Source: Candidatus Micrarchaeota archaeon (GTDB lineage: Archaea > Micrarchaeota > Micrarchaeia > Anstonellales > JAGGVH01). Taken from it: a stretch of DNA of 40,904 bases. Where the stretch lies: the NCBI GenBank assembly GCA_021158105.1, contig JAGGVH010000037.1, forward strand, positions 1 to 40,904. Direction: 5' to 3'. Position numbers and translations under genes: made by a program. Below are positions 3,340 to 40,623 of the stretch, in pieces. Position 1 is the stretch's first letter; each line of letters starts with the position of its first letter. Below the pieces are notes generated by a model. That model did not search any database. It was not told where the DNA came from and saw only the letters and a program-made list of their open reading frames with translations.

Positions 3340-5115
3340 ATGAAGAAGATGACTGGCAAACAACTAAAAGAAACATTCTTAAAATATTTTGAGAGCAAAG
3401 GCCATGCGATCATTGAATCATCATCGCTCATACCAGAACATGACCCTACTGTCCTGTTCACAACAGCAGGCATGCATCCGTTGACGCCTTATTTGTTAAG
3501 CCAACCACACCCGTTAGGTAAAAGGCTGGCTGATGTTCAAAAATGCTTGAGAACAGATGACATTGACGAGGTAGGTGACAACTTTCACCACACATTTTTT
3601 GAAATGCTGGGCAACTGGTCGCTTGGAGATTACTTCAAAGAAGAAGCAATATCATTCAGTTTTGAATTCCTTACAAAAGTATTGGGAATGCCCGTAGAAA
3701 AGTTGGCTGTGAGCTGCTTTGCAGGCGACGAGCATGTTAAAAGAGACGACGAATCAGCAAATATCTGGGAACGTTTAGGAATTCCAAAAAAGAGGATTGC
3801 ATTCCTGGACAGAAAAAATAATTGGTGGGGTCCAGCTGGCGAGACTGGTCCGTGTGGTCCAGACACTGAAATGTTTTATTGGTCGAGTGATGAGCCCGCC
3901 CCAGAACGATTTGACCCTAATGATGACAGATGGGTGGAGATATGGAATGACGTATTCATGGAATACAATAAAACAAAAGAAGGAAAGTTTATCCCGCTCA
4001 AACAAAAGAATGTTGACACAGGCCTCGGTGTTGAGAGGGTGACTGCAATATTACAAGGTTATAATGATGATTATAAAACCGAATTGTTTTGGCCGATAAT
4101 CCAAGAAATTGAAGCCATAACAAACAAAAAATATGAAACCCATACAAAACTGATGCGGATCATAGCAGACCATTCCCGTGCGATAGTGTTCATATTGGGC
4201 GACGAGCATGATGTCATACCATCCAATGTTGACCAAGGATACATCTTACGACGTTTAATCCGCAGAGTAATCAGAACATTCAGGCAGATGAATGTCGGCA
4301 TAGAAAATAACAGTTTAATACCGTTAGCTGTAAAGATAATTGAGATGTATAAAGATGAATATCCACTGCTTGAAAAGAAAAAGAAATTTATAATTGACGA
4401 GATTAAAAATGAAGAACTCAGGTTTAAACGCACGCTTGACAACGGACTGAAAGAATTTAACAGGATAATTTCAAACTTGAAACCTAACGACAAGATGTCT
4501 GGCAAAGATGCATTCCTTCTCTTTCAAAGTTATGGTTTTCCAATAGAAATAACTCAGGAACTCGCAAAAGAGAAAGGGTTGGATGTTGACATAGAAGAGT
4601 TTAATAATGAATATAAGAAACATCAAGAGAAATCACGAAAAGGTGCTGTTAAAAGGTTTAAAGGCGGACTGAGCGACGCATCTGAACAGACAATTAAACT
4701 TCACACTGCCACCCACATATTAAACGAAGCACTACGGAGAGTGTTGTCTAAAGATATCAGACAGAAAGGCAGTAACATTACACCTGAGAGACTACGGTTT
4801 GACTTTAACTTTTCGCGAAAACTTACAAAGGATGAGATAAAAAAGGTTGAAGATGAAGTAAACAGAGTAATAAAAAAGGGATTAGAAGTTAAGAGGGTAG
4901 AAATGTCATTAGATGAAGCACTCAAAACCGGTGCACAGGCAGAGTTTGGGGCGAAGTATCCCAATCGTGTATCAGTTTATTTCATAGGCGACTACTCCAA
5001 AGAAATATGTATGGGGCCACATGTTAAAAACACTAAAGAGCTTGGAACATTTAAAATCATAAAAGAAGAGTCAAGTGCTGCAGGGATAAGAAGAATAAAA
5101 GCAGTGTTAATCTAA
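3340..5115 (+). CDS. alaS: Alanine--tRNA ligase, bacterial-type, compact (591 aa, catalytic + tRNA-recognition + editing core, no C-Ala domain)
   Basis: The N-terminus FLKYFESKGHAIIESSSLIPEHDPTVLFTTAGM...HHTFFEMLGNWSLGDYFK aligns closely with bacterial AlaRS motifs. The editing-domain HxxxH (HTATHILNEAL) and GPHVKNT...GTFKI are present. The ORF ends right after the editing core. Confidence 0.85.
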   Translation: MKKMTGKQLKETFLKYFESKGHAIIESSSLIPEHDPTVLFTTAGMHPLTPYLLSQPHPLGKRLADVQKCLRTDDIDEVGDNFHHTFFEMLGNWSLGDYFKEEAISFSFEFLTKVLGMPVEKLAVSCFAGDEHVKRDDESANIWERLGIPKKRIAFLDRKNNWWGPAGETGPCGPDTEMFYWSSDEPAPERFDPNDDRWVEIWNDVFMEYNKTKEGKFIPLKQKNVDTGLGVERVTAILQGYNDDYKTELFWPIIQEIEAITNKKYETHTKLMRIIADHSRAIVFILGDEHDVIPSNVDQGYILRRLIRRVIRTFRQMNVGIENNSLIPLAVKIIEMYKDEYPLLEKKKKFIIDEIKNEELRFKRTLDNGLKEFNRIISNLKPNDKMSGKDAFLLFQSYGFPIEITQELAKEKGLDVDIEEFNNEYKKHQEKSRKGAVKRFKGGLSDASEQTIKLHTATHILNEALRRVLSKDIRQKGSNITPERLRFDFNFSRKLTKDEIKKVEDEVNRVIKKGLEVKRVEMSLDEALKTGAQAEFGAKYPNRVSVYFIGDYSKEICMGPHVKNTKELGTFKIIKEESSAAGIRRIKAVLI

Positions 5116-10644: not shown

Positions 10645-13600
10645 TCAACGGTTTGGATTGGCATATGTTTTAGTCGTTTTCAACATCGAAGACCTCTTGG
10701 CACCAGTCTGTTCAACCATCAACGCAGAACGGTTAACTAATCTTAACCCATGCAATGGATTAATGCCATACGGCTGGACCTTACTTATCTCACCTAACCC
10801 TTGATATGATTTCAGTGCATCAACCACAGATTTACCTTCACTATTAGTAAAATATGGCAAGTCACTCATCCGAATCTTTTTTATAGACCTTATTTCTTCT
10901 AAATTAAACCCAGAATTCTTTAAGTATTTCACTGCAGATTCCATAACATCTGACCTGGACGTAGAACTTGAATTGTAATATGTGATAACCCTCATAGCCG
11001 CCCGCTCAGCAGGGTCAACCACATGTCCCAAAACAGTTCTTGTTTCTTCAACAGTAGTCACAGGAGTAATCTTAAGTTCTGCACTAATCCCATTAAGATT
11101 CTTGTTCATGTTGTACAACCATTGTTTGAAATTTGCTGAAATATCAACATTCTGTGAAGAGGAGATTATATATGTACTCGGTCCAACCCTCACTACCTCT
11201 GCTGATGACAAAAGGCCGTCAGGCATACTGTTCTCAGTAATTGCTATCCGATAATTACCCATATCATGTCCCACCAAATTATAATGGATTATGTCAAGCT
11301 TGTTAGCTTTATCAACTCTTAACAATCCTTTGCCCTGGTTTTCAATGGACAGACCTGAGAAAGTTTTCTTCAATTCAGGACTTTTGACATAATCGTTAAC
11401 ATCAACAACATAAACCTTCCTACCTTGTTTAACCATTTTTGCAGCATACCTTTCAGCTTCAGATTGTTTCATTGAACCGAGTGACCGGTTGTTCACTACA
11501 CTACTCTTCCCAAAAATTATAGTGCTCAATTGTTCTGCCTTTTGAGAACTCTGTTCAGCTGCACCTATCAGTTTATTGATTCCTTCATTCTTGACAATAT
11601 AATATGCATTATCTACTGAAAGCATATTTTTACCTTCCCAATGCACCCTTAAAAAGTCATCAACGGTTTGTTCTGAGATTATACCCTTCTTAACGATAGG
11701 CCTTAACGACTTTCTAACTGCATCTTCAAAACCCATAAAATGTTTATTATAAACCTGGTTAAACACGTCGTCTGGTGCAGTAGTAATAAAATAAAGTTCG
11801 TCACCACCTTGAAGGTTGGCCATGGTCTTATAACCCATTCCTTCAATTTCCTTTCTAACACGGCCAAACATCTTTTTATATTCTAACAAAACTGCATCTC
11901 CAAACCTTTTTGAAGTAGTATTATTAATAGTACTAGTATTGGCCTTGTCAAAAGAATAGATGTATACTTTATCAATGTTAGGGTCAGCATTAAGCTTTTC
12001 AAGAAATTTTGTTGTATTCTTTCCCAACTGGGAATTATTAACACTTGGAACCCGCATTTCAGATGTAAAATAATCTATCATCCTGTACTCTGCGACCCCG
12101 GCAACAGCTGTACCTGCCAACATTGCTGACTGGATAACAATTGGCATGACAGGACTTTTTCCTTCTTTTACTAATTCTCCATACACCTCAGCGTTCTTTG
12201 CAGTACCGCCATAATACAACACACCCATACCTGCCATTTCTGTGCCAGACAACCCGATCTGTAATCCATAACTTAACGTGCCAGACATTCGTGTGGCAGC
12301 ACTCAACGCGCCAATTCCTGAACGTGCCACTGGCGCAAAACTGACAATCATCGTGCCAAGCTCCAACTGGGTGTCTGCAGATGCCAAATCAAAGGTATTA
12401 GTCCTGATTTGTGTGTAAAGTTTTGATGCGCTCTCCAGAGCAAAATAACTCGATCCTATATAAATCAATCCTACGCCCACACTTGCCCCGACACCTGTCG
12501 CACTTAACGCTGCACCGCCCACTATCGCTCCAGCGGCCAATACATCATCAGCAGTCATCTCCTTCTTCTTCTCAACAAACGTACCATCACGAAACCCATA
12601 AACACCCGGTGCAAACCGTGACACATCAACAAGTCGTTTTACTAAATTGTTAGCAACTTCATTCTTATTGTTCTCACCAACATAATCCTCCAATGCCTCA
12701 CCAGTCATAGGGTTGACTGCAATAATCTTTGTAACATTTTCTCGTACTGGTGCCATGACACCAAGCCGCCCCAATTCATTTGGCGACCTTTCAACTTTCT
12801 TAACTGTCACTTCCCTCAACAGCACTGGAACTGTTGACAATGACAATGCAGTGCCATCAGGATTTTTAGTAAGATATCTAATAGGATAAACAATTATCCC
12901 CTTCTCCTTTAAATATTCTGGGCGTATACATCTATTTGTCAAATCACTAATATCTTCCTTGCTTAAACCCAAGTTCTCTAAAGCCTTTATGTATTTTTCC
13001 TGTGAAATTAATGAAGCATCAATCAGATTAATCTGTGCAACCGAAGATTTTAAATCCTCTGAAGAAGGCGTATAACCTTTTGTTAGAACATTATCCTTAA
13101 CCTCATTAAATTTCTTATCAACTTCCTGCCTGATCTGACCGATAATTTCGTTTTCAGTATTAGTACTGACCTGTTCAGTGTAATGAAATTTTGCTTGGAT
13201 CTTAACAGGCCTAATATTAGAAATCTCACTAATCACATCAGGATTAAGATTAATCTTTGTTTTAGCAGACATTGCAATCTCATTCAGTGCATTAGATACA
13301 TCATTAGCGAATTCGGTATCATTACGAACAACAGAAGCATTGTTTATTCTCTCGTTAAAATTCTCAATCTTATTTGTTATGTCATTATGACTACCAAGAT
13401 AACTTTTGATTGTATTCAAATCCCTCATCATCATTTCAAACTCGTCGTTACTGATGTCTACCTTATTCCTAAACAAACTGTTCAGAGCATCATCAAACGT
13501 CAACCGGTTTGTAGGAGTGGCATACTTTGTAATATCGATTGATACAGTTTGATTACTGGCGGCCCATTCTTTCTTCCTTTGCATTGCACGTTCTTGAATC

Positions 13601-13680
13601 TTTTGGGCCAACTCTTGCAGTCTCTTGGTTGCATTTTCAACCTCAGCTTTATCCTTTTCCATCAAAAACGGTCCTGACAT
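10645..13680 (-). CDS. Large (1011 aa) membrane-associated protein with N-terminal coiled coil, central Gly/Ala-rich glycine-zipper segment, possible GGDEF-like palm region
   Basis: ATG at 13680. Residues 1-300 are heptad and charged (coiled-coil-like). The central stretch AAGAIVGGAALSATGVGASVGVGLIYIG...GLQIGLSGTEMAGMGVLYYGG has GxxxG repeats. Downstream, SFDKAN...FGDAVLLEYKKMFGRV...ANLQGGDELYFIT weakly resembles the GGDEF A-site region. Confidence 0.55.
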   Translation of the reverse strand: MSGPFLMEKDKAEVENATKRLQELAQKIQERAMQRKKEWAASNQTVSIDITKYATPTNRLTFDDALNSLFRNKVDISNDEFEMMMRDLNTIKSYLGSHNDITNKIENFNERINNASVVRNDTEFANDVSNALNEIAMSAKTKINLNPDVISEISNIRPVKIQAKFHYTEQVSTNTENEIIGQIRQEVDKKFNEVKDNVLTKGYTPSSEDLKSSVAQINLIDASLISQEKYIKALENLGLSKEDISDLTNRCIRPEYLKEKGIIVYPIRYLTKNPDGTALSLSTVPVLLREVTVKKVERSPNELGRLGVMAPVRENVTKIIAVNPMTGEALEDYVGENNKNEVANNLVKRLVDVSRFAPGVYGFRDGTFVEKKKEMTADDVLAAGAIVGGAALSATGVGASVGVGLIYIGSSYFALESASKLYTQIRTNTFDLASADTQLELGTMIVSFAPVARSGIGALSAATRMSGTLSYGLQIGLSGTEMAGMGVLYYGGTAKNAEVYGELVKEGKSPVMPIVIQSAMLAGTAVAGVAEYRMIDYFTSEMRVPSVNNSQLGKNTTKFLEKLNADPNIDKVYIYSFDKANTSTINNTTSKRFGDAVLLEYKKMFGRVRKEIEGMGYKTMANLQGGDELYFITTAPDDVFNQVYNKHFMGFEDAVRKSLRPIVKKGIISEQTVDDFLRVHWEGKNMLSVDNAYYIVKNEGINKLIGAAEQSSQKAEQLSTIIFGKSSVVNNRSLGSMKQSEAERYAAKMVKQGRKVYVVDVNDYVKSPELKKTFSGLSIENQGKGLLRVDKANKLDIIHYNLVGHDMGNYRIAITENSMPDGLLSSAEVVRVGPSTYIISSSQNVDISANFKQWLYNMNKNLNGISAELKITPVTTVEETRTVLGHVVDPAERAAMRVITYYNSSSTSRSDVMESAVKYLKNSGFNLEEIRSIKKIRMSDLPYFTNSEGKSVVDALKSYQGLGEISKVQPYGINPLHGLRLVNRSALMVEQTGAKRSSMLKTTKTYANPNR

Positions 13681-15847: not shown

Positions 15848-16840
15848 ATGACAAGAAAAAAACAAACCAAAGATTATGACAGCCCATATTTGAATCTTAT
15901 AGCAAGACAGGGATATCACATCATAGGACATCATTCTGGGATTAAACCGTGCAAATGGTTTCATGAATCATTGCGCGGGGGGATACAATGTTATAAAAAT
16001 AAGTTTTATGGTATCAAATCTCATCAGTGTATGCAGTCAACACCTGTCCTGCAGTTCTGTACTAATGCATGCATATTCTGTTGGAGGATGATGCCTGAAA
16101 AAAAGAATGATGACCTGCCCCAGCCGGGGTTCAAGTGGGACCCGCCAGAATTCATCGCTGAGAAATTGATAGAAGAACAATTAAAATTCGTTCAAGGGTA
16201 TAAAGGCTATGACAAGACACCAAAAGACAGGTTAGAAGAGGCATTACATCCCAAGCTTGCCACGTTGTCATTGACAGGTGAACCCACGATTTATCCCTAC
16301 CTCAGCGAACTAATAACCGAGTTTAAAAAACGCGGGATGTATGTGTTCTTGGTAACAAACGGCACGCTCCCTGAGAGATTAAGAAAGTTAAAAGAACTGC
16401 CCACACAGTTGTACATTTCAATGGATGCACCTGATAATGAAACATTTCAAAAGGTATGCAGGTCGCACCTTACAGATGGGTGGGAAAGATATAACCAGTC
16501 ATTAGAATTTCTAAACACAGTAAAAGGCAAAACTCGGACAGTTCTCAGGATGACGTTGATAAGAGGACATAATGACAATAACCTTAAAGGGTATGCTGAA
16601 CAGATAAAAGTGGCACAACCCGATTATGTTGAGGTTAAAAGTTTTGTGTATGTGGGAGGAGCACGAAACCCTGACAGGGGACTGAAATTAAGTGACATGT
16701 TACGTATTGAAGAGATAAGAAAAATCGCAGATGAATTAAGAAAGATGACCAGTTATATCATAACCGATGAGCATGTGCCGTCACGGGTCGTACTATTATG
16801 CAGGGATAAAAATGCAATTGATAACAGGTTCATTGAATAA
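15848..16840 (+). CDS. taw1: tRNA 4-demethylwyosine synthase Taw1 (TYW1 homolog), radical SAM
   Basis: N-terminus YHIIGHHSGIKPCKWFHESL and radical-SAM cluster CTNACIFCWR (Cx3Cx2C) are present, as is the typical TYW1 C-terminal region. Confidence 0.75.
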   Translation: MTRKKQTKDYDSPYLNLIARQGYHIIGHHSGIKPCKWFHESLRGGIQCYKNKFYGIKSHQCMQSTPVLQFCTNACIFCWRMMPEKKNDDLPQPGFKWDPPEFIAEKLIEEQLKFVQGYKGYDKTPKDRLEEALHPKLATLSLTGEPTIYPYLSELITEFKKRGMYVFLVTNGTLPERLRKLKELPTQLYISMDAPDNETFQKVCRSHLTDGWERYNQSLEFLNTVKGKTRTVLRMTLIRGHNDNNLKGYAEQIKVAQPDYVEVKSFVYVGGARNPDRGLKLSDMLRIEEIRKIADELRKMTSYIITDEHVPSRVVLLCRDKNAIDNRFIE

Positions 16841-21304: not shown

Positions 21305-22321
21305 ATGGCGACTAAAAATAAAACATTATTGAAAAAATATAAAAAAAGTAAATCAAAAATTATAAAATATCTTTTAATGTCATCGCTCATTGGAAGTGTA
21401 ATGACTGGGGGATATGTTGGAATTAAAACATTCTATAACCACAAAAAATACATTGAAACAATGAATAGTATGAGGATAAACGACCCAGTATTGAAAATGC
21501 ACACTTTTAATGAAGATACAATGTTTGTTCATATCAATGAAAAGGAGGAATATAAATGTTTTATGTTAAAAATGATTGTGCGTAAAGTCGTAAATTCGGA
21601 TATCTTAGATGGAGAAGAAGAGATATACTCAAAACTTGGGATAGACTTAAAAAATGAAGATTTGACACCAAAAACAAATGATACATTATCACTGATTTTT
21701 CCGACATATCATCAAAATAATCGTATAAACATTTATCCTGATAGGAAATTAATACTGATAGGTAAGCTTTATGAAAAGTTTTTTCCAGGTGATTCATTTT
21801 ATAATGCAATAGGCAAAGGAGTGTTTTATACACTGATTCCCGGTCCTGCAATAAGTGAGCTATTTGATAGGAATACTCAAAAAAAATATATCTCAGCAGC
21901 TTCTGATGCACAATTTAATAATGTGTTTGATTTGTTTAAACAGAATGGTACTTGTTATCAACAATCATTAGCCATAGTTTCAATCCTTCACAGCTATGGA
22001 ATAAAAGCAGGAATCGTTGGACTGCTTAGCCCTTTTGACACTGAAGGTCATGTTGTAGTGTTCATACCTGATGAAAACATAATAATTGACCCAACTACTG
22101 CATTGACAGGCAACACAGTCTATCATGGATTTGATAAATATTTTAATGATGTTGGCTTACCAATTTCAAAGCCACAGATATACATGATAAATAGTGTTTC
22201 TTCTTATGATGATGAATATTATGAGTTGGCAGATATCAAACATTCTAAAAAGATTATCAAAAAACTTGAAAAGATTGGCGCGCTTGCGAAATATGTATCC
22301 ATCTTTAATTTGGAAGATTAA
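21305..22321 (+). CDS. Transglutaminase-like cysteine protease superfamily protein, membrane-anchored
   Basis: N-terminal TM helix. The Cys-His-Asp arrangement GTCYQQSLAIVSILHSYG ... EGHVVVFIPDENIIIDPT is typical of the transglutaminase-like core. Confidence 0.5.
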   Translation: MATKNKTLLKKYKKSKSKIIKYLLMSSLIGSVMTGGYVGIKTFYNHKKYIETMNSMRINDPVLKMHTFNEDTMFVHINEKEEYKCFMLKMIVRKVVNSDILDGEEEIYSKLGIDLKNEDLTPKTNDTLSLIFPTYHQNNRINIYPDRKLILIGKLYEKFFPGDSFYNAIGKGVFYTLIPGPAISELFDRNTQKKYISAASDAQFNNVFDLFKQNGTCYQQSLAIVSILHSYGIKAGIVGLLSPFDTEGHVVVFIPDENIIIDPTTALTGNTVYHGFDKYFNDVGLPISKPQIYMINSVSSYDDEYYELADIKHSKKIIKKLEKIGALAKYVSIFNLED

Positions 22322-22367
22322 CGATAAAAGTTAACTTTTTAAACTCTTTTAAAAAGAATAATACAAT

Positions 22368-22544
22368 GGGCCCGTAGCTCAGCTTGGATAGAGCGGCAAT
22401 CGCGTTGACTGTAAGCCTTCTAAGCTGATGGTCGAGGGTTCCGACCTTTTTTCTTTCAAAAAGAAAAAAGGTACGTTATCAAAAAAGAAACGTACTGAAA
22501 ACTGAAAAGAGAAAACAGGTCGCCTAAAAATCCCTTCGGGCCCG
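22368..22544 (+). tRNA. Intron-containing tRNA, probable tRNA-Arg (anticodon UCU); exons 22368-22441 (with an internal ~16-nt insertion) and 22528-22544
   Basis: 5' acceptor GGGCCCG pairs perfectly with CGGGCCC at 22537-22543, followed by discriminator G. The D arm is canonical: GCTC/AGCTTGGATA/GAGC. The anticodon loop is CTTCTAA (C32 U33 UCU A37 A38) with stem TAAGC/GCTGA (one A.G mismatch). The variable loop is TGGTC. The T stem is GAGGG...CCCTT, and joining the exons gives T loop TTC|AAAT. Confidence 0.55.
22442..22527 (+). other. 86-nt tRNA intron at non-canonical position 56/57 (T loop) with bulge-helix-bulge motif
   Basis: BHB: central 4-bp helix GGGT(51-54)/GCCT(22522-25) (G.U, G:C, G:C, U.G), 3-nt bulges UC|C and AA|A with cuts after the 2nd nt, intron-intron helix GACC(22443-46)/GGTC(22518-21). 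An internal hairpin GTACGTT...AACGTAC is also present. Confidence 0.5.
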
Positions 22545-22595
22545 AACCTATTTATGCTTTTTCTTTTCCAATAAAATATAAAAAAGAAGAAAGGT

Positions 22596-24308
22596 TTAAC
22601 CACAGGTTGCAGTTGAACCTGATGATGAACTGCCACTGGCCACTGGACCAAAACTGGGTGCTGCATTGCCATAACTGCTCAAATCTGTATCACACTCAGG
22701 TGGTTTGTCTTTAAGGCGCGCGCATATAATTTCTTTTATTTCTTCTGCATTTCTTGGCATTTGAACCTTTTTACCGTTTAAAACAGACGTTGGCGACCCT
22801 CTAACACCATACTCATCGTTTTCATCTGCATATATTGGAAAAGAGGTTCCCTGAATACCGTATGTATCTGTTGTCTCGTTTGCACATTGCGAAATGACAG
22901 TCTTGTCAATCTCCATCTTGTCCATACAATCGTCTGCTTTGCCAGCCTCAACAAAACACTCTAAGTAATCCCAAAACTTGTCAGGATAATTCTTGTTGAT
23001 GCAGTATTCGTCCAAATTGTCACTGGTTTCCTGTGGACCGTGCATAGTATACTGTACAAACTTATTATTTATACTGACACTTGAAACGTTTTCAAACAGT
23101 TCTGCCACTGGTATGACTGCCTTTTGCATTTGCAATCCAAAAGGACAATGCGACATTATGTATATGTCAAGTGTAACATTGTTATACCCATCCCCGATAT
23201 AATTCTTCAAATCAGGAGACTTCAGTTCAACTGAAAATGCATCGTCATTCTCATTGACTGTGTAATACCGGGTGGAATTAAGCTTACTTATCATTTCTTG
23301 TTTGTCATCACTACTGATGTTTGTTATCTCTAAATATGGAAGATAATCCGCACTAATGTTATCAGTTGTAGAGTTGTAGGTTTTAGTAGTGTAATCCAAC
23401 TTTATACCAATATTTTCTAACCCATCAAAATATTTCTCATCACCGGAAGTCTTAACATACAATATCCCCTGTGCTTCAATCACCTTTCCAAGGTAATGGT
23501 CTGCATCACTCAATAAAATCGGCTCACCCACATATTCATTGTCCATATCTTTAATGCTCCAACCAATTTGCGGGGCAATTTGTGGATTAATCAACTGAGG
23601 AAACACTAAATCAACTGCGATTTTATTATCCTTGTCCAATTTTGTCTTATCAAGAACAAAAACAGGAGCATGCTCAACACCATACCTTTCAAGCTCCTTT
23701 TTAGTGTCATCATCCAGCGTAACGTATTGATAGTCAAATGTCAACCCATAATATTGTTTCAATGAATCAAAAAAGTTTAATGCTGACTTGTCGTCATCAT
23801 TAACTATGTAGACTGTTGCATTGACAGGTTCAACATCGGGTTTTGTACATCCCGAATAATCGCACATGTTGCCAGCAGTTATCGCAGGATTGGCTGACAT
23901 CTGAACAGGAAGGTAGTTGCTATTAAGAATATAATACAGAAAACTACCCTTTTTGTTTTTGATATTATCCTGCAACATTGCAACGTCCTGGTCATACGTC
24001 GGATTTTGCTGTTTACATATTGTTTCAGCATCACTAGACTTATTATAAAGCACCTTGCTAAAATCAACACATCGTGTTTGTATGTTTGCACCGGTCAACT
24101 CGCTTAAACGCGAAATTATTACAGCACTTGAATTGTCCCTCGGGTCAGTAAACAGAACAAAGTTGCCTGCCCCGGATCCAGACAGGTTTGTTGAGTTAGC
24201 TCCTGGCGTGCCAGGCCCCGGACCTATGCCCGGGATTGTACATCCTGACATAAACATCAATCCAAACGCTAACGTAAATGCTAAAGTTAATAGGATTACA
24301 TTTCTCAT
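22596..24308 (-). CDS. Secreted lipoprotein-like protein with thioredoxin-fold-like repeats
   Basis: Signal peptide plus Cys (LMFMSGCTIPG) followed by a Gly/Pro/Ser linker. There are many N-x-S/T sequons and a C-terminal HCPFG monothiol motif with other Cys. Confidence 0.5.
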   Translation of the reverse strand: MRNVILLTLAFTLAFGLMFMSGCTIPGIGPGPGTPGANSTNLSGSGAGNFVLFTDPRDNSSAVIISRLSELTGANIQTRCVDFSKVLYNKSSDAETICKQQNPTYDQDVAMLQDNIKNKKGSFLYYILNSNYLPVQMSANPAITAGNMCDYSGCTKPDVEPVNATVYIVNDDDKSALNFFDSLKQYYGLTFDYQYVTLDDDTKKELERYGVEHAPVFVLDKTKLDKDNKIAVDLVFPQLINPQIAPQIGWSIKDMDNEYVGEPILLSDADHYLGKVIEAQGILYVKTSGDEKYFDGLENIGIKLDYTTKTYNSTTDNISADYLPYLEITNISSDDKQEMISKLNSTRYYTVNENDDAFSVELKSPDLKNYIGDGYNNVTLDIYIMSHCPFGLQMQKAVIPVAELFENVSSVSINNKFVQYTMHGPQETSDNLDEYCINKNYPDKFWDYLECFVEAGKADDCMDKMEIDKTVISQCANETTDTYGIQGTSFPIYADENDEYGVRGSPTSVLNGKKVQMPRNAEEIKEIICARLKDKPPECDTDLSSYGNAAPSFGPVASGSSSSGSTATCG

Positions 24309-27263: not shown

Positions 27264-28508
27264 TTAATACAACAATCCAAAAACATAAAGCGGAATTTCA
27301 TTATCTTTGAACATAATGGTTTCCTTTACTAAATAACCATTCTTTTTATTTTTAAGTTGTGCCCACCTCTTTGCCTCCCCGCCTATTTCAAATATATTCT
27401 CCCCTATGATGTAGTCAGGAGTTCTCCGTTCTACTCCGGTTTTCAGATATTTTGCATTACCAACATGCTGTATAAAAAAATCTTCCCTTATCCCACCAAG
27501 GGAAGGAGTTATACCATAACTTTTACACAATGCACTCCTGAAAGATAAAGGCATTAAAAGTTTATCTTCACTTCTTATTGCTTTGTGCCCAACACCTTCT
27601 GGAGGTATGACATATAATAATCCTGAATATGACAACATCTTTACAATTTCCTGAGCAACCTTTGTGCCTCTATCAATACTGTTTGCAATACGTGTATAAC
27701 TTACCTCTCCAGGTGGAGAACTTGCAATAAATTTTACTACTTTAAACACTGAATCAATATAATGCACATCAACCTCCCTCAAAGATTGCAGGTCATACCT
27801 AACAATCCTTTCCAAGATATTAATGTAAACGTCAGGTTTATCATTAAAAAAACAAGCAGGAAGTGCATTCTGCTGTGTGTAAATCCCAAATTCATTAATG
27901 TAAGGCATAATCTGTTTAACGATTTTTCTAAGTTTGTTTGGAGCAAGTATATCTGAAAGTTCTATTCTATTTATACCCTTCTTGACTTTGAAATATAAGT
28001 ATTCCCTGAAAGATAATGGTTTGAGTTTAAATATTGTTGCACGCCTGGACAATTCTGATCCTTTTGTTTTAAGCGCAACTGCTGAAGAACCAGTTATGAC
28101 AATATTCGAATGTGTTTCATCATAAAATATTTTAATATCCTTTTCCCAGTCAGGAATAGAATGAATTTCATCTATAAGAAAAGTAGTATAGCCCATAATC
28201 TCAAAATAATGCAATATATCCAACAAATTAACACCATACTTAAGAATGATGTCGCCATTCAGATATATAGATTTTTCAATAGAATATAATAAAGTTGAAA
28301 GGATAGTCGTCTTGCCAACACCTCTCAGCCCAGATATAATATACAACCCTTTTTTAGATTTAATTTGCGAGATAATTTCTATGCTAGAATACCTGAGGTT
28401 ATCTACTCTTGCCTGTTCTGCAGTTTTCATTGACATTGTCATTATATTAGTAAACAAAATTTCCTGCATATGTATTTTAAGAACAATAAGGTTTATATTT
28501 GTTTCCAT
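27264..28508 (-). CDS. AAA+ ATPase, COG1373 family (AAA_14 + DUF4143)
   Basis: Walker A YIISGLRGVGKTTILSTL and Walker B FLIDEIH are present, with a DUF4143-like C-terminal half. It is paralogous to 39421..40623. Confidence 0.65.
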   Translation of the reverse strand: METNINLIVLKIHMQEILFTNIMTMSMKTAEQARVDNLRYSSIEIISQIKSKKGLYIISGLRGVGKTTILSTLLYSIEKSIYLNGDIILKYGVNLLDILHYFEIMGYTTFLIDEIHSIPDWEKDIKIFYDETHSNIVITGSSAVALKTKGSELSRRATIFKLKPLSFREYLYFKVKKGINRIELSDILAPNKLRKIVKQIMPYINEFGIYTQQNALPACFFNDKPDVYINILERIVRYDLQSLREVDVHYIDSVFKVVKFIASSPPGEVSYTRIANSIDRGTKVAQEIVKMLSYSGLLYVIPPEGVGHKAIRSEDKLLMPLSFRSALCKSYGITPSLGGIREDFFIQHVGNAKYLKTGVERRTPDYIIGENIFEIGGEAKRWAQLKNKKNGYLVKETIMFKDNEIPLYVFGLLY

Positions 28509-28656: not shown

Positions 28657-29817
28657 CTATTCTTCTCCTTTAAAAACCTTTACGACCTCACTCGCAGGCG
28701 CATCTGTCCTTATACCTGTCGGAGTAAAATGTGTAGGCGCTGCATAATACCCCTCACTCGTGAGTTTATCAATAACATCATTATTCTTAGGAGATGACAA
28801 CCTTAGAACCTTTCCCATGTAATGCAGATCATAATACAACAACCCTTTTTCGTTCAACATAATGTTGATAATCTTAAGCGCTCTGTCTTCTTTTCTCTCA
28901 ATTGCGATCTGTTTCATCCTTTTTAATACCTCTGGACTGTGTAGTTCACTCAAATATATTAGGCCGCCAATGAGTTCATCGTTATTCTTTTCTAACCCTT
29001 GTGAATAAAACTGATTAAGAGGTATGGAGTGGTATTCAAACGTCTTAGGATTAAACTTCACATAGCCCAAATTATTTAATTCCTGCTCCCTTGCACCAAC
29101 TGCACCGCGAACAACATAACATATAACTTTAACATAATGCCTGTGAGAAAAACTCATCAACGGCATAATCTTATAATCATACTCATGTGCAACCCTGGCA
29201 ATGTGCGCAAGCAAGATCCGCGTGCCAAACTCATACAAGAACATGTCATGAATAGGTTTGGAATGGTAAATCTTAGGTGTTGCCCTGCGATGCGCGCCAT
29301 GTAGCACTGCTGTATCAGTGGCAGTCACAGACAACACTGCCTTTTTTGTTGAAGAATTTGAAAGGAATGAACTTACACTCGCATGAAGATAAGGTGCAGG
29401 CGTGCCAAACGGGTCCAATTCAATAAAATTATATTCATGATGAGTGCTAAGATGAGTCAATATATTCTCACAGAACACACCAGCAGAAGATGAAAGATTA
29501 TTAAGCATAATATTTTTTTCTATGACCGGACAAACACGTCGGTTCGCTTCAACAAAATTAACAAGCTCAACATTATCATTCTCTTTTACATACCGCAAAC
29601 CGCGAATCCCAGAAGCTGCAAACCCGTCACAGATCTTAAGTTTATCATTAAGGTTGCCAAGCGCACCCACCAATAATGACGACATTGTCCTGTTCAGCTC
29701 CATCTGCGGATTGTAGAATGCTCTACCTATAACAAATTTCACATTACCCTCTACTAAAATCTTATCACTGTTTACATTACCAGTATTATCACTCATCACA
29801 AATAATAAAAGCCACAA
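28657..29817 (-). CDS. trm1: tRNA (guanine(26)-N2)-dimethyltransferase Trm1
   Basis: FYNPQMELNRT, SGIRGLRY, ELDPFGTPAPYL, VTATDTAVLHGAH and THFTPTGIRTDAP align along the whole length with archaeal Trm1. Confidence 0.75.
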   Translation of the reverse strand: MWLLLFVMSDNTGNVNSDKILVEGNVKFVIGRAFYNPQMELNRTMSSLLVGALGNLNDKLKICDGFAASGIRGLRYVKENDNVELVNFVEANRRVCPVIEKNIMLNNLSSSAGVFCENILTHLSTHHEYNFIELDPFGTPAPYLHASVSSFLSNSSTKKAVLSVTATDTAVLHGAHRRATPKIYHSKPIHDMFLYEFGTRILLAHIARVAHEYDYKIMPLMSFSHRHYVKVICYVVRGAVGAREQELNNLGYVKFNPKTFEYHSIPLNQFYSQGLEKNNDELIGGLIYLSELHSPEVLKRMKQIAIERKEDRALKIINIMLNEKGLLYYDLHYMGKVLRLSSPKNNDVIDKLTSEGYYAAPTHFTPTGIRTDAPASEVVKVFKGEE

Positions 29818-30055: not shown

Positions 30056-31987
<1,932 letters not shown>

Positions 31988-32006
31988 TGCGGTGATGTAT
32001 AGGTGA

Positions 32007-34397
32007 TTGATAATGGAGATAATAAAACCTGTTGAAAAAGAGATGAAAGAATCTTATATTGATTATTCTATGAGCGTAATCGTAGGCCGCGCACTTCCTG
32101 ATGTGAGGGACGGATTAAAACCTGTCCACCGCAGGATATTGTATGCAATGTATTCAATGGGTAACGTTCACAATAAACCGTACAAAAAGAGTGCGAGGAT
32201 TGTCGGCGAAGTGTTGGGTAAATACCATCCGCATGGCGATACTGCAGTGTATGATTCCATGGTCAGAATGGCACAGGAATTCTCGATGCGTTATGTATTG
32301 ATAGACGGTCAGGGCAACTTCGGGTCGGTTGACGGTGATTCTGCGGCTGCGATGAGGTATACTGAAGCGCGGTTGTCACAACTCGGAGAAAGCATGTTAA
32401 AAAACATTGAAAAGGATACGATTGATTTTATTCCAAACTTTGACGGTACATTGAACGAGCCGACAGTGCTGCCCACAAGAATACCAAACCTTATCATTAA
32501 CGGGTCATCAGGAATCGCGGTCGGTATGGCAACCAATATGTTGCCCCATAACTTGAACGAAGTGATTGACGCGTTGATACTGTTGATTGACAACCCAAAC
32601 AGCAGTCTTGATGACATAATAAAACATTTGCCAGGGCCTGACTTTCCCACTGGCGGAATAATAATGGGGAGAAGAGGAATATTAAGCGCTTATGCTCATG
32701 GCAGGGGCAGTATAACAGTAAGGGCCAAGACTGAGATTGTCGAGACAAAGAAAGGAGCACAGATCAGGATAACAGAACTACCTTACCAAACCAATAAGGC
32801 CAACATGATTTCTAAGATTGCAACACTTGTCAAGAATAAAAAACTTGAAGGGATAAGGGACATCAAGGACATGTCAGACCGAAGAGGGTTATTGGTCATT
32901 ATTGATATTGAAAAAGGGTATGATGCAAACGTTGTGCTCAATAATTTATACAAGCATACCGACCTTGAAAAGAATTTTGGAGTTATTAACTTAGCACTTG
33001 TTAATGGCGTGCCGCGGCTGCTGAACATGAAACAATTGTTGACAAAGTTTATTGAATTCCGAAGAGAAGTCGTGCTTAGAAGGACAAAGTTTGACCTTGC
33101 GAAGGCTGAAGAGAGAAGACATATCGTCCAAGGATTAATCATAGCAGTTAACAATATTGATGACACTGTCAGGATTGTTAAGCAGGCAAACGACCCGAAA
33201 GATGCAGCAGAACAGTTAATGGCACAGTTTGGGATAACTGATAAGCAGGCAAAAGCTATACTGGACATGAAACTTCAGAGGTTGACGGGACTGGAAAGGA
33301 ATAAACTTGACAGTGAACTTAAAGAACTTGAAGACAAGATTAGAGAGTATAAGAACATTATTGAAAATGATAATGTCTTGATGAATGTGATAAAAGAAGA
33401 GCTTGTTGAAGTTAAAAATAAATTTGGCGATAAGAGAAGGACTGAAATTTCAGAGGATTTTGAAGAAGTTATCGAAGATGACGAACTTGTAAATGATGAA
33501 GCAGTTGTTATAATATTAACACAGAACGGTTATGTCAAACGTGTTCCGCTTGATGAATACAAGGCGCAGGGCAGAGGAGGAAAAGGAGTCATAGGAATTA
33601 AAACAAAAGAGGACATGGTCAAAGACATCATAACTGCTAAGAACAGGGACTGGTTGTTAGTGTTCACTGACAACGGCAAAGTATACTGGTTAAAAACGTA
33701 CAGGATACCTGAGATGGGACGGTATGCGCAGGGAAGGCACATCAAAAACCTGTTACAGATTGGAGATGCTAACGTTCGCGCTGTCATCCCGGTCAGGGAA
33801 TGGGACGGTTACCTGTTCACTGTAACAGAAAAAGGCGTTGTAAAAAGGACAAGGTTGTCAGCGTACAGCCACCCGCGGGCGACAGGCATAATCGCATTAA
33901 AACTTAAAGAGGGTGATAGAGTTGTCGACGTTAAGAAGACAAGCGGTACTGATGACGTGATAATAATAACACACAATGGCATGGCAATACGGTTTGATGA
34001 GAACGATGCGCGGGAGATCGGACGGACCGGGCAAGGCGTGAGAGGCATCAGATTACGCGGTGATGACAAAGTTGTGTCACTGTGCATTGCAAAGGGCCAG
34101 ATATTAACGATTACTGAACAGGGTTACGGCAAACGGACAAACGTTGACAATTATAGGAAGCAACACAGGGGCGGCCACGGAGTCATCGGGATTAAAACTG
34201 TAAAAGGCAGAGTTGTGTCAGCGCATAATGTTTCTGATGATGACGAGGTTATACTGTTAAGTTCATCAGGCAGGATGGTCAGGATACCTGTGAATTCAAT
34301 AAGAGAAGTAGGAAGGAACACAATCGGTGTAAGATTGATGAGGTTGGACGAAGGAGAAAACGTTGTAGCCAGTACAGTGATCAAAACCAGTAAGTAA
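32007..34397 (+). CDS. gyrA: DNA gyrase subunit A
   Basis: [29 protein letters not shown], active-site [10 protein letters not shown] and a C-terminal beta-pinwheel repeat region. It follows gyrB by 19 bp. Confidence 0.9.
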
Positions 34398-39420: not shown

Positions 39421-40623
39421 ATGAAAACTATGGATATTGAACTAATAAATGACATTATTGAGATGGATGCTAAAATGCGGAGCAACGTCCCAAAGATTAA
39501 AAGGTTTGATTACCCATCCATATTTAAACAAAATAAAGCGTTTACCGGCATCGCAGGACCCAAAGGTGCAGGAAAAACAGTCATGCTCAGACAAAAACTT
39601 TTAGAAACTGAGAATGCTTTATATATCTCATTAGACAGTATAGAAATAGATGATTTGTACAGTATTGTGAATTATTTTTCAGATGAACGAGGCATAAAAA
39701 CCTTTTTGTTTGATGAGATACATTACTATCGCAAATGGGAAAGAGATCTTAAGAAAATTTATGATTATCTCAATGTAAATGTCTATTTCACATCATCAGT
39801 CTCATTAAAGATATATAAAAGTTCATACGACTTAGGCAGAAGAGTTAGAATAAAAAAACTTTATCCCTTTTCATTAAGGGAATACCTGTTTTTTAAAGAG
39901 AATGTTAAAAAAGAAAAACTTAACATTAAAGATATATTCTCAAAAAAGAAAATAAAAGATATATTAAAATATGATTATCTTTATCCTCCGTATATAACTG
40001 GAGGATTATACCCCATGCAATTGGAAGACAACGAAGACCAAGATAAGTTTATGAACATAATCAAAAGCATCATCGAAAGGGATATCCCAAGAGCGTACAA
40101 TTATTCATTGGAAGATGTTTTTAATATAAAAGAAGTATTAAAATTTATAACAACATCACCAGTAGAGGGTGTATCATATTCTTCTATATCAAGAAATGTA
40201 GGAATAACAAAATACACTGTTATGAAGTATATCAAAGCTTTAGAAGATTCTTTCATCTTATCAGTAATTGAACCTAAAGGGACGAACATAAAAAAAGAAC
40301 CAAAAATATTAATATTTCCGCCATTCCGTGAAACATTTGCAAAAAATAATAATTTCCTGACCGGTTCAGTAAGAGAAGACTTCTTTATCCTATCAATGAA
40401 AATAGCAGGATACAATGATGTATACTATCTGAAAGGGATAAGAGGAAGAAAAACACCCGATTATTATATACCATCGGAAAATATGGTATTGGAGATAGGA
40501 GGGAAATCTAAATCGTTTACTCAGTTTAAATTTATAACTAAAAATATTAAAAAAGTAATATTGACCTACCCAGGAACACTAAAAGAAGGGACTGCACCGT
40601 TAATATCTGTTGGGTTTTTATAA
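39421..40623 (+). CDS. AAA+ ATPase, COG1373 family (AAA_14 + DUF4143)
   Basis: Walker A FTGIAGPKGAGKTVMLRQ and Walker B FLFDEIHY are present, with a DUF4143-like C-terminus. It is a paralog of 27264..28508, has a TATA-rich upstream region, and is flanked by direct repeats. Confidence 0.65.
   Translation: MKTMDIELINDIIEMDAKMRSNVPKIKRFDYPSIFKQNKAFTGIAGPKGAGKTVMLRQKLLETENALYISLDSIEIDDLYSIVNYFSDERGIKTFLFDEIHYYRKWERDLKKIYDYLNVNVYFTSSVSLKIYKSSYDLGRRVRIKKLYPFSLREYLFFKENVKKEKLNIKDIFSKKKIKDILKYDYLYPPYITGGLYPMQLEDNEDQDKFMNIIKSIIERDIPRAYNYSLEDVFNIKEVLKFITTSPVEGVSYSSISRNVGITKYTVMKYIKALEDSFILSVIEPKGTNIKKEPKILIFPPFRETFAKNNNFLTGSVREDFFILSMKIAGYNDVYYLKGIRGRKTPDYYIPSENMVLEIGGKSKSFTQFKFITKNIKKVILTYPGTLKEGTAPLISVGFL

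Follow-up and report, generated by a model that had tools for sequence, protein, structure and literature searches.

Do two acceptor strands whose starts lie 169 nt apart (GGGCCCG at 22368-22374 and CGGGCCC at 22537-22543) still belong to one working tRNA gene? The question was raised by a sequence-only reading of a 40,904-nt stretch of archaeal DNA (hereafter the window), which proposed a tRNA-Arg(UCU) gene with an 86-nt intron at position 56/57 and a second intron of 16 nt, expected a standard scan to miss it and suspected a DPANN host. We conclude, at a probability of roughly 0.88, that positions 22368-22544 of the plus strand hold a functional-looking tRNA-Arg(UCU) gene with two protein-spliced (BHB-type) introns in Candidatus Micrarchaeota (DPANN). 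The suspected host agrees with the NCBI record of a contig protein, Csl4, which is listed under Candidatus Micrarchaeota archaeon on a 40,904-nt contig, so that the window is the entire contig, and the core of the proposal stands, as the in silico spliced product of 75 nt is called tRNA-Arg(tct) by ARAGORN. To ARAGORN and Rfam the contig is tRNA-free, yet it encodes the decoder of AGA/AGG; DPANN tRNA complements are undercounted by automation unless BHB-aware tools are used.

Gene anatomy and detection

The acceptor, D, anticodon, variable-loop and T regions can all be read in the sequence and assemble into tRNA-Arg(UCU), as had been claimed (Table 1). The D arm is GCTC/AGCTTGGATA/GAGC, and the anticodon loop CTTCTAA (22417-22423, with the anticodon TCT at 22419-22421) sits on a 5-bp hairpin. 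The T-stem halves GAGGG (22434-22438) and CCCTT (22532-22536) have the 86 nt between them, whose removal (22442-22527) leaves the T loop TTCAAAT, again as proposed. CCA is not encoded at the 3' end, where AAC comes next. The three exons are collinear, on one strand and within 177 nt, and the gene is thus neither a split nor a permuted tRNA gene.

Table 1. Features of the tRNA-Arg(UCU) locus and other genes of the window (positions in the 40,904-nt stretch)
Feature	Position	Strand	Description
A/T box TTTTTAAA	22336-22343	+	candidate archaeal TATA box, with the mature 5' end ~25-32 nt downstream, predicted from sequence
Second A/T box TTTTAAAAA	22347-22355	+	candidate, predicted from sequence
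Exon 1	22368-22398	+	tRNA positions 1-29: acceptor GGGCCCG, U8 A9, D arm with G18 G19 A20, G26, G27 C28 A29; identical or near-identical to ortholog exon 1
Intron A ATCGCGTTGACTGTAA	22399-22414	+	16 nt, position 29/30, BHB scan
Exon 2	22415-22441	+	tRNA positions 30-56: rest of the anticodon arm, variable loop TGGTC, GAGGG, T54 T55 C56
Intron B	22442-22527	+	86 nt, T loop, position 56/57, BHB scan
T6 run	22447-22452	+	6 nt into intron B; possible oligo-T stop for archaeal RNA polymerase, predicted from sequence
Exon 3	22528-22544	+	tRNA positions 57-73: AAAT, CCCTT, CGGGCCC, discriminator G
T-rich stretch TTTTTCTTTT	22558-22567	+	T5/T4, 14 nt past the discriminator; candidate oligo-T terminator
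AlaRS ORF	3340-5115	+	591 aa
ORF	10645-13680	-	1011 aa
Taw1/TYW1	15848-16840	+	radical SAM, wyosine formation
Upstream neighbour	21305-22321	+	338 aa
ORF overlapping the tRNA	22379-22672	-	97 aa
tRNA neighbour	22596-24308	-	
AAA_14 ATPase ORF	27264-28508	-	
Trm1	28657-29817	-	m2,2G26 methyltransferase
Gyrase (GyrB + GyrA)	30062-34397	+	bacterial-type
AAA_14 ATPase ORF	39421-40623	+	paralog of the first; also with DUF4143

The spliced product is a class I tRNA with a canonical cloverleaf (anticodon UCU, A20, C35, G73, T loop UUCAAAU) and the full set of canonical tertiary-pair bases. Its anticodon stem GCAGC/GCTGA carries a G27·A43 mismatch, the sole unpaired position, which is invariant in 31/31 distinct spliced sequences (the window and 30 orthologs; loci retrieved from outside the window carry L numbers). 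Compared with the uninterrupted ortholog L138, 71/75 nucleotides are identical, and the four differences consist of G26/A26, the compensatory exchange A50-U64/U50-A64, and G49·U65/G49-C65. The uninterrupted orthologs L138, L153 and L174, which serve here as a proxy for the spliced product of the window, score 67.1-69.6 bits with the covariance model RF00005 (gathering threshold 29). The matches listed for a degenerate exon-2 pattern are mostly bacterial, include L014, and comprise tRNA-Arg(TCT) genes across bacteria and archaea, which confirms the identity of exon 2. The locus occurs in identical form on an independent JGI metagenome contig (L001); this contig has no gene call at the place of the 97-aa ORF that overlaps the tRNA, and we treat that ORF as spurious.

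As the sequence-only reading had expected, the gene escapes standard scans. ARAGORN made zero tRNA calls on the whole window, with or without the intron option, and Rfam returned nothing for the window at the gathering score and no tRNA hit for the 321 nt around the locus (22300-22620) at E<=10. The interrupted orthologs L136 and L014 are likewise missed by RF00005. Within the 40.9-kb window, no tRNA D-arm match other than that of tRNA-Arg(UCU) was found, and ARAGORN with the intron option together with a D-arm/T-arm motif scan revealed no other hidden tRNA. Such silence of the standard detectors would also suit a decaying pseudogene, in which two insertions inactivated tRNA-Arg(UCU), processing no longer takes place and another copy provides the function. 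The copy count rests on the 40.9-kb window, and a second, uninterrupted copy may exist elsewhere in the genome. All three exons are intact, however, the only stem mismatch is the one common to all spliced sequences, and the changes relative to uninterrupted orthologs are compensatory, so that we consider decay improbable.

Splice motifs and folding

The BHB scan required a 4-bp helix, a 3-nt bulge directly 3' of each strand and a cut after the second bulge base; in the chance control, the exons were held fixed, the introns were shuffled and the motif was required at the exact junction. Both introns have precisely this central-helix and bulge geometry at the junctions that a canonical tRNA requires. 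In intron A, the central helix GCGG (22393-96)/CTGT (22409-12) is flanked by the bulges CAA (22397-99) and AAG (22413-15) and followed by a 3-bp inner helix TCG/TGA, and an equally good motif arose at the required junction in 419/200000 shuffles (0.2%). Intron B has GGGT (22436-39)/GCCT (22522-25) as its central helix, TCC (22440-42) and AAA (22526-28) as bulges with cuts after the second base, and an inner helix of 5 bp, GACCT (22443-47)/AGGTC (22517-21); only 19/200000 shuffles (0.01%) did equally well. The sequence-only reading was right about a second 16-nt intron with a relaxed motif, but its coordinates for it (about 22396-22411) have to be shifted to 22399-22414. For intron B, it had correctly given the 56/57 position, the 4-bp helix, the two 3-nt bulges and the cuts two bases in, and had counted one base pair too few in the inner helix (4 instead of 5).

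Neither motif has an outer helix. Both are therefore relaxed BHB motifs, and their 3' cut sites lie in unconstrained single strand and not in true bulges. A strict hBHBh' motif, with an outer helix of at least 2 bp, is absent from both window introns (H1 = 0). The strict motif is the substrate of the α4/α'2 euryarchaeal EndA. The value H1 = 0 recurs in all orthologs interrupted at 29/30 or 56/57, as opposed to H1 = 5 bp for the 59/60 introns of relatives. The T-loop motif is thus not a strict hBHBh' motif, and the implication that intron A is the more relaxed of the two does not hold, as both have a central helix, bulges and an inner helix and lack the outer one. The absent outer helices would fit a pseudogene, but each insertion carries a precise cleavage motif of a kind that seldom arises by chance.

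The position of intron A was weighed against two other readings of the same nucleotides. The 26/27 placement of the sequence-only reading would give a TAAGC stem, seen in 0/31 spliced sequences, and was rejected; L014, which has no insert in the anticodon stem, carries GCAGC/GCTGA, the exact product of the 29/30 junction. Alternatively, only the T-loop insert might be an intron, with the 16 nt kept in a mature RNA that would resemble a class II tRNA, with a different anticodon arm and a long variable arm, and when only 22442-22527 is removed, ARAGORN indeed accepts a 91-nt fold as 'tRNA-Thr(cgt)'. This fold is rejected because its loop CGCGTTG has G33 and U37 instead of the conserved U33 and purine 37. 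Moreover, its stem GCAAT/ACTGT carries a mismatch, and what it takes for a 'variable arm' has the 7-nt loop CUUCUAA of a perfect anticodon arm and not the short loop of a class II tRNA. In orthologs that lack the 16 nt, UCU is read from that same hairpin, and the 16 nt have their own BHB. Being contradicted by the ortholog comparison as well, the class II-like tRNA has next to no probability, and we retain intron A at 29/30.

Without constraints, the precursor folds with an MFE of -64.0 kcal/mol (z = -5.6), in which the acceptor and T stems are kept and the T loop is prolonged into an intron rod; intron B itself is predicted to form a long, A/U-rich rod that contains an internal hairpin. The unconstrained MFE prefers the T stem over the GGGU/GCCU helix, which counts against the two-intron reading. 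When the precursor is folded with BHB constraints, as the earlier reading had advised, the conformer exceeds the MFE by only 1.8 kcal/mol for intron B and by 4.7 kcal/mol for intron A.

The T6 run in intron B could end archaeal transcription ahead of exon 3, and this would speak for an inactivated gene or for a functionally split one. In the latter, transcription would stop at T6, exon 3 would be transcribed separately, and the rod would hold the two RNAs for trans-splicing as in Nanoarchaeum. The intron arms form a long predicted duplex able to hold two pieces, and examples of split tRNAs have been described from DPANN and Crenarchaeota (PMC4090602). On the other hand, no more than 86 nt separate the pieces, which are contiguous on one strand, the 17-nt exon 3 has no evident promoter of its own, and L136, L148 and L236 have the same layout with 29-nt introns that contain no T run. 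AT-rich archaeal genes often contain T runs, and L180, L132 and L168 likewise carry T5-T8 runs in their long T-loop introns. A split gene is therefore very improbable, less so only than the class II-like tRNA, and a single cis-spliced gene is preferred.

Two further candidates for the nature of the inserts were rejected. No group I intron core was found by Rfam over 22300-22620 at the gathering score or at E<=10, and the introns of 16 and 86 nt lie outside the anticodon loop; group I introns in tRNA genes are typically longer than 200 nt and located in the anticodon loop. Against a box C/D guide RNA, intron B has CUGA twice but lacks a RUGAUGA C box, and no Rfam family reaches its gathering score there. 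A BLAST search of the window and of the 240+ fetched loci found no second copy of intron B, and there is thus no sign of intron transposition.

Orthologs and covariation

With a tighter exon-2 pattern, 120 loci were obtained from a metagenome collection, representing 48 distinct archaeal-type genes. Nine of the 48 are uninterrupted, 10 have a 29/30 intron only, 19 have a 59/60 T-loop intron only, four combine 29/30 with 59/60, four combine 29/30 with 56/57 (the window, L136, L148 and L236), and two belong to no assigned class. The comparison with related genes that had been recommended thus yielded orthologs both with and without these introns. In a Micrarchaeaceae MAG (L014), the T loop of this gene is interrupted by a 21-nt intron, in the layout GGGCCCATAGCTCAGCTTGGATAGAGCA-GCAGC-CTTCTAA-GCTGA-CGGTC-GCGGG-TTC[21 nt]AAAT-CCCGC-TGGGCCCG.

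The position and motif of the 29/30 and 56/57 introns are conserved while the intron sequence drifts. Introns at 29/30 occur in 18 distinct genes including the window and measure 16-32 nt; the 17 others (19-32 nt) share the position and the helix, in which GCGG (or GCAG) is always paired with an intron-side CCGC, CCGT or CTGT. Introns at 56/57 always have GGGT/GCCY (GCCT or GCCC on the intron side), no outer helix and unrelated inner helices, and are 29 nt long in each of L136, L148 and L236, 86 nt in the window and 198 nt in L180. The inner helices of these introns, such as GACCT/AGGTC, GGTTAAG/CTTAACC and GGC/GCC, vary in sequence and length with their pairing kept. The 59/60 introns (13-71 nt) have the strict motif, with the central helix TTCA/TGRA and the intact 5-bp T stem as the outer helix. 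The recurrence of the same sites and relaxed motifs in independent lineages, with unrelated intron sequences, implies selection for splicing and argues against a decaying gene.

When the 31 distinct spliced sequences are aligned (A1), the cloverleaf pairs 95.2% of cells, as against 88.7% after shuffling. Compensatory changes are present in six pairs, the observed covariation score was reached by 0/500 shuffles, and sliding the partners by 1-3 columns lowers the pairing to 29-49%. Most of exon 2 was prescribed by the search pattern, which left exons 1 and 3 and the introns free, so that the conservation of exon 2 is partly by construction and the informative covariation comes from the acceptor and D stems and from the 3' half of the T stem.

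The first ~260 nt on the minus strand of L180 (Ga0315294_10000034) hold a related tRNA-Arg(UCU) gene whose 5' end is off the fetched stretch. Its 198-nt 56/57 intron has a GGGT/GCCC helix, an AA|A 3' junction, several hairpins and a T8 run, and exceeds the 11-129 nt range given in the 2014 review PMC4090602. The 86 nt of intron B had been called unusual; the intron is long, but in view of this published range and of L180 it is not exceptional.

Proposed processing pathway

The flanks hold elements that could drive and end transcription, and their presence also speaks against a pseudogene. The upstream A/T box may act as a promoter: L136, L148 and L236 have CTTTTATAC at -33 to -27, and in most orthologs an A/T box is centred at about -25 to -34. 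Termination would take place at the downstream T-rich stretch; T runs of at least 4 within 40 nt downstream are found in about half of the orthologs.

From these elements and the motifs we infer the following course. A single precursor of ~180 nt or more would be transcribed from the A/T box ~30 nt upstream and would refold transiently, so that the 3' ends of introns A and B pair with bases 24-27 (GCGG) and 51-54 (GGGU), respectively. Each pairing would create a 4-bp helix with two flanking 3-nt bulges stacked on an intron hairpin, in which EndA would cut after the second bulge base (22398|22399, 22414|22415, 22441|22442 and 22527|22528). An RtcB-type ligase would then join the three exons, RNase P and RNase Z would trim the ends, and CCA would be added enzymatically. 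That an endonuclease and a ligase process this gene can be inferred with high confidence. As the outer helix is absent from both motifs, EndA would need a broad specificity, like that of the ε2 enzyme of Micrarchaeum/ARMAN-2 or of (αβ)2 enzymes. Neither an EndA nor an RtcB ligase gene was found in the 40.9-kb window, and the enzyme type is therefore taken from the phylum, presumably ε2 after ARMAN-1/2 (PMC3239211, PMC4033280).

Genomic context

Pfam hits on the contig include Csl4/Rrp4, Pelota, RpoL, Trm1, Taw1, AlaRS, SecDF and gyrase; Csl4, Pelota, RpoL, Trm1 and Taw1 mark the host as an archaeon. Homologs of Csl4 with 57% and 50% identity are located on L242 and L243, where the gene order is shared and the contigs stop before the position of the tRNA. 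Two tRNA modification enzymes, Taw1/TYW1 and Trm1, are encoded on the same contig as the tRNA, which has G26. The AlaRS ORF comprises the catalytic domain and stops just after the tRNA_SAD domain. A typical archaeal AlaRS has ~900 aa, and the enzyme may be truncated or split as in some DPANN archaea. Several large ORFs, among them the 1011-aa ORF and both neighbours of the tRNA, had no Pfam match, and the upstream neighbour had no homolog but itself among 5.8 billion proteins. The window further contains the two paralogous AAA_14 ATPase ORFs and the gyrase genes listed in Table 1.

In many ortholog loci (L123, L124, L128, L143, L152, L159, L164, L170, L176, L183, L200, L224, L238, L240 and others) a small conserved ORF lies ~10-20 nt 3' of the tRNA, starting near ATGAAAGAC with a 'LLNDNSVPRNVK'-like motif. 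The window does not have this linkage and has a 570-aa minus-strand ORF instead. In L003, L053, L068 (twice), L084 and L094, tRNA-Arg(TCT) is represented by an isolated 3' part that starts with the anticodon loop and has no 5' half upstream. These isolated parts, one of them in a Methanosarcinales MAG, resemble attachment-site duplicates of integrated elements, which suggests that tRNA-Arg(UCU) is an integration target. The region from the T loop to the 3' end of tRNA genes is a common integrase target.

Comparison with known systems

The ortholog series, with no intron, 29/30, 59/60 and 56/57 introns, their combinations and T-loop introns of 13-198 nt, could serve to trace how introns are gained, slide and expand, and could probe how broad-specificity endonucleases treat motifs without an outer helix. 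Among the nearest counterparts of the window gene are the 59/60 relatives (L014, L123, L124, L130 and others), in which the orthologous gene has near-identical exons, an interrupted T loop and in some cases a 29/30 intron. They differ in that the intron lies 3 nt further 3' and has a strict hBHBh' motif, whereas the 56/57 intron of the window unzips the T stem. One may speculate that a Micrarchaeota-like sub-clade moved the T-loop intron of tRNA-Arg(UCU) from a strict 59/60 site to a relaxed, T-stem-unzipping 56/57 site and then expanded it to a long rod (29 to 86 to 198 nt), possibly with functional rods; we rate this scenario as unlikely, at about one chance in ten. If it were true, the rods could be stable excised or circular RNAs, or could shield the region from the T loop to the 3' end.

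Introns at 29/30, 56/57 and 59/60 are among the known non-canonical sites, and archaeal tRNA introns have lengths of 11-129 nt with medians of 12-25 nt (PMC4090602). The archaeal tRNA-Trp(CCA) box C/D intron resembles intron B in being unusually long (~65 nt) and structured (PMC4090602); it differs in its location at 37/38 and its C and D boxes, a guide RNA in intron B being unsupported. Among Thermoproteales, the tRNA-Pro(UGG) of Pyrobaculum islandicum has introns at 25/26, 37/38 and 56/57 (Sugahara et al. 2007/2008, as cited in PMC4090602). These genes share with ours several introns per gene, relaxed HBh'/hBH motifs and presumed processing by EndA and ligase; they belong to Crenarchaeota with an (αβ)2 EndA and have introns mostly of 12-25 nt, unlike the AT-rich DPANN genome here with its much longer T-loop intron.

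Another close system is that of Candidatus Micrarchaeum acidiphilum ARMAN-2, from the same phylum-level lineage. In this archaeon, 56% of tRNA genes are disrupted, T-loop introns included (Fujishima et al. 2011, PMC3239211), and ARMAN-1 and ARMAN-2 are among the lineages with multiple-intron tRNAs (PMC4033280). The likeness extends to T-loop sites (59/60; 53/54 with 59/60), to relaxed hBH/BHL motifs, of which an hBH motif at 59/60 is cleaved in vitro by the ε2 EndA of ARMAN-2, and to genes that ordinary tRNA finders miss (PMC3239211). The examples described there are tRNA-Cys, -Pro and -Ile with introns of 13-25 nt, as against tRNA-Arg(UCU) with introns at 29/30 and 56/57, the latter of 86 nt, in the window. 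The intron positions are already documented, the gene type is known from DPANN archaea and the known mechanism is unchanged; the gene is distinctive only in the size of its T-loop intron and in its membership of the minority 56/57 class.
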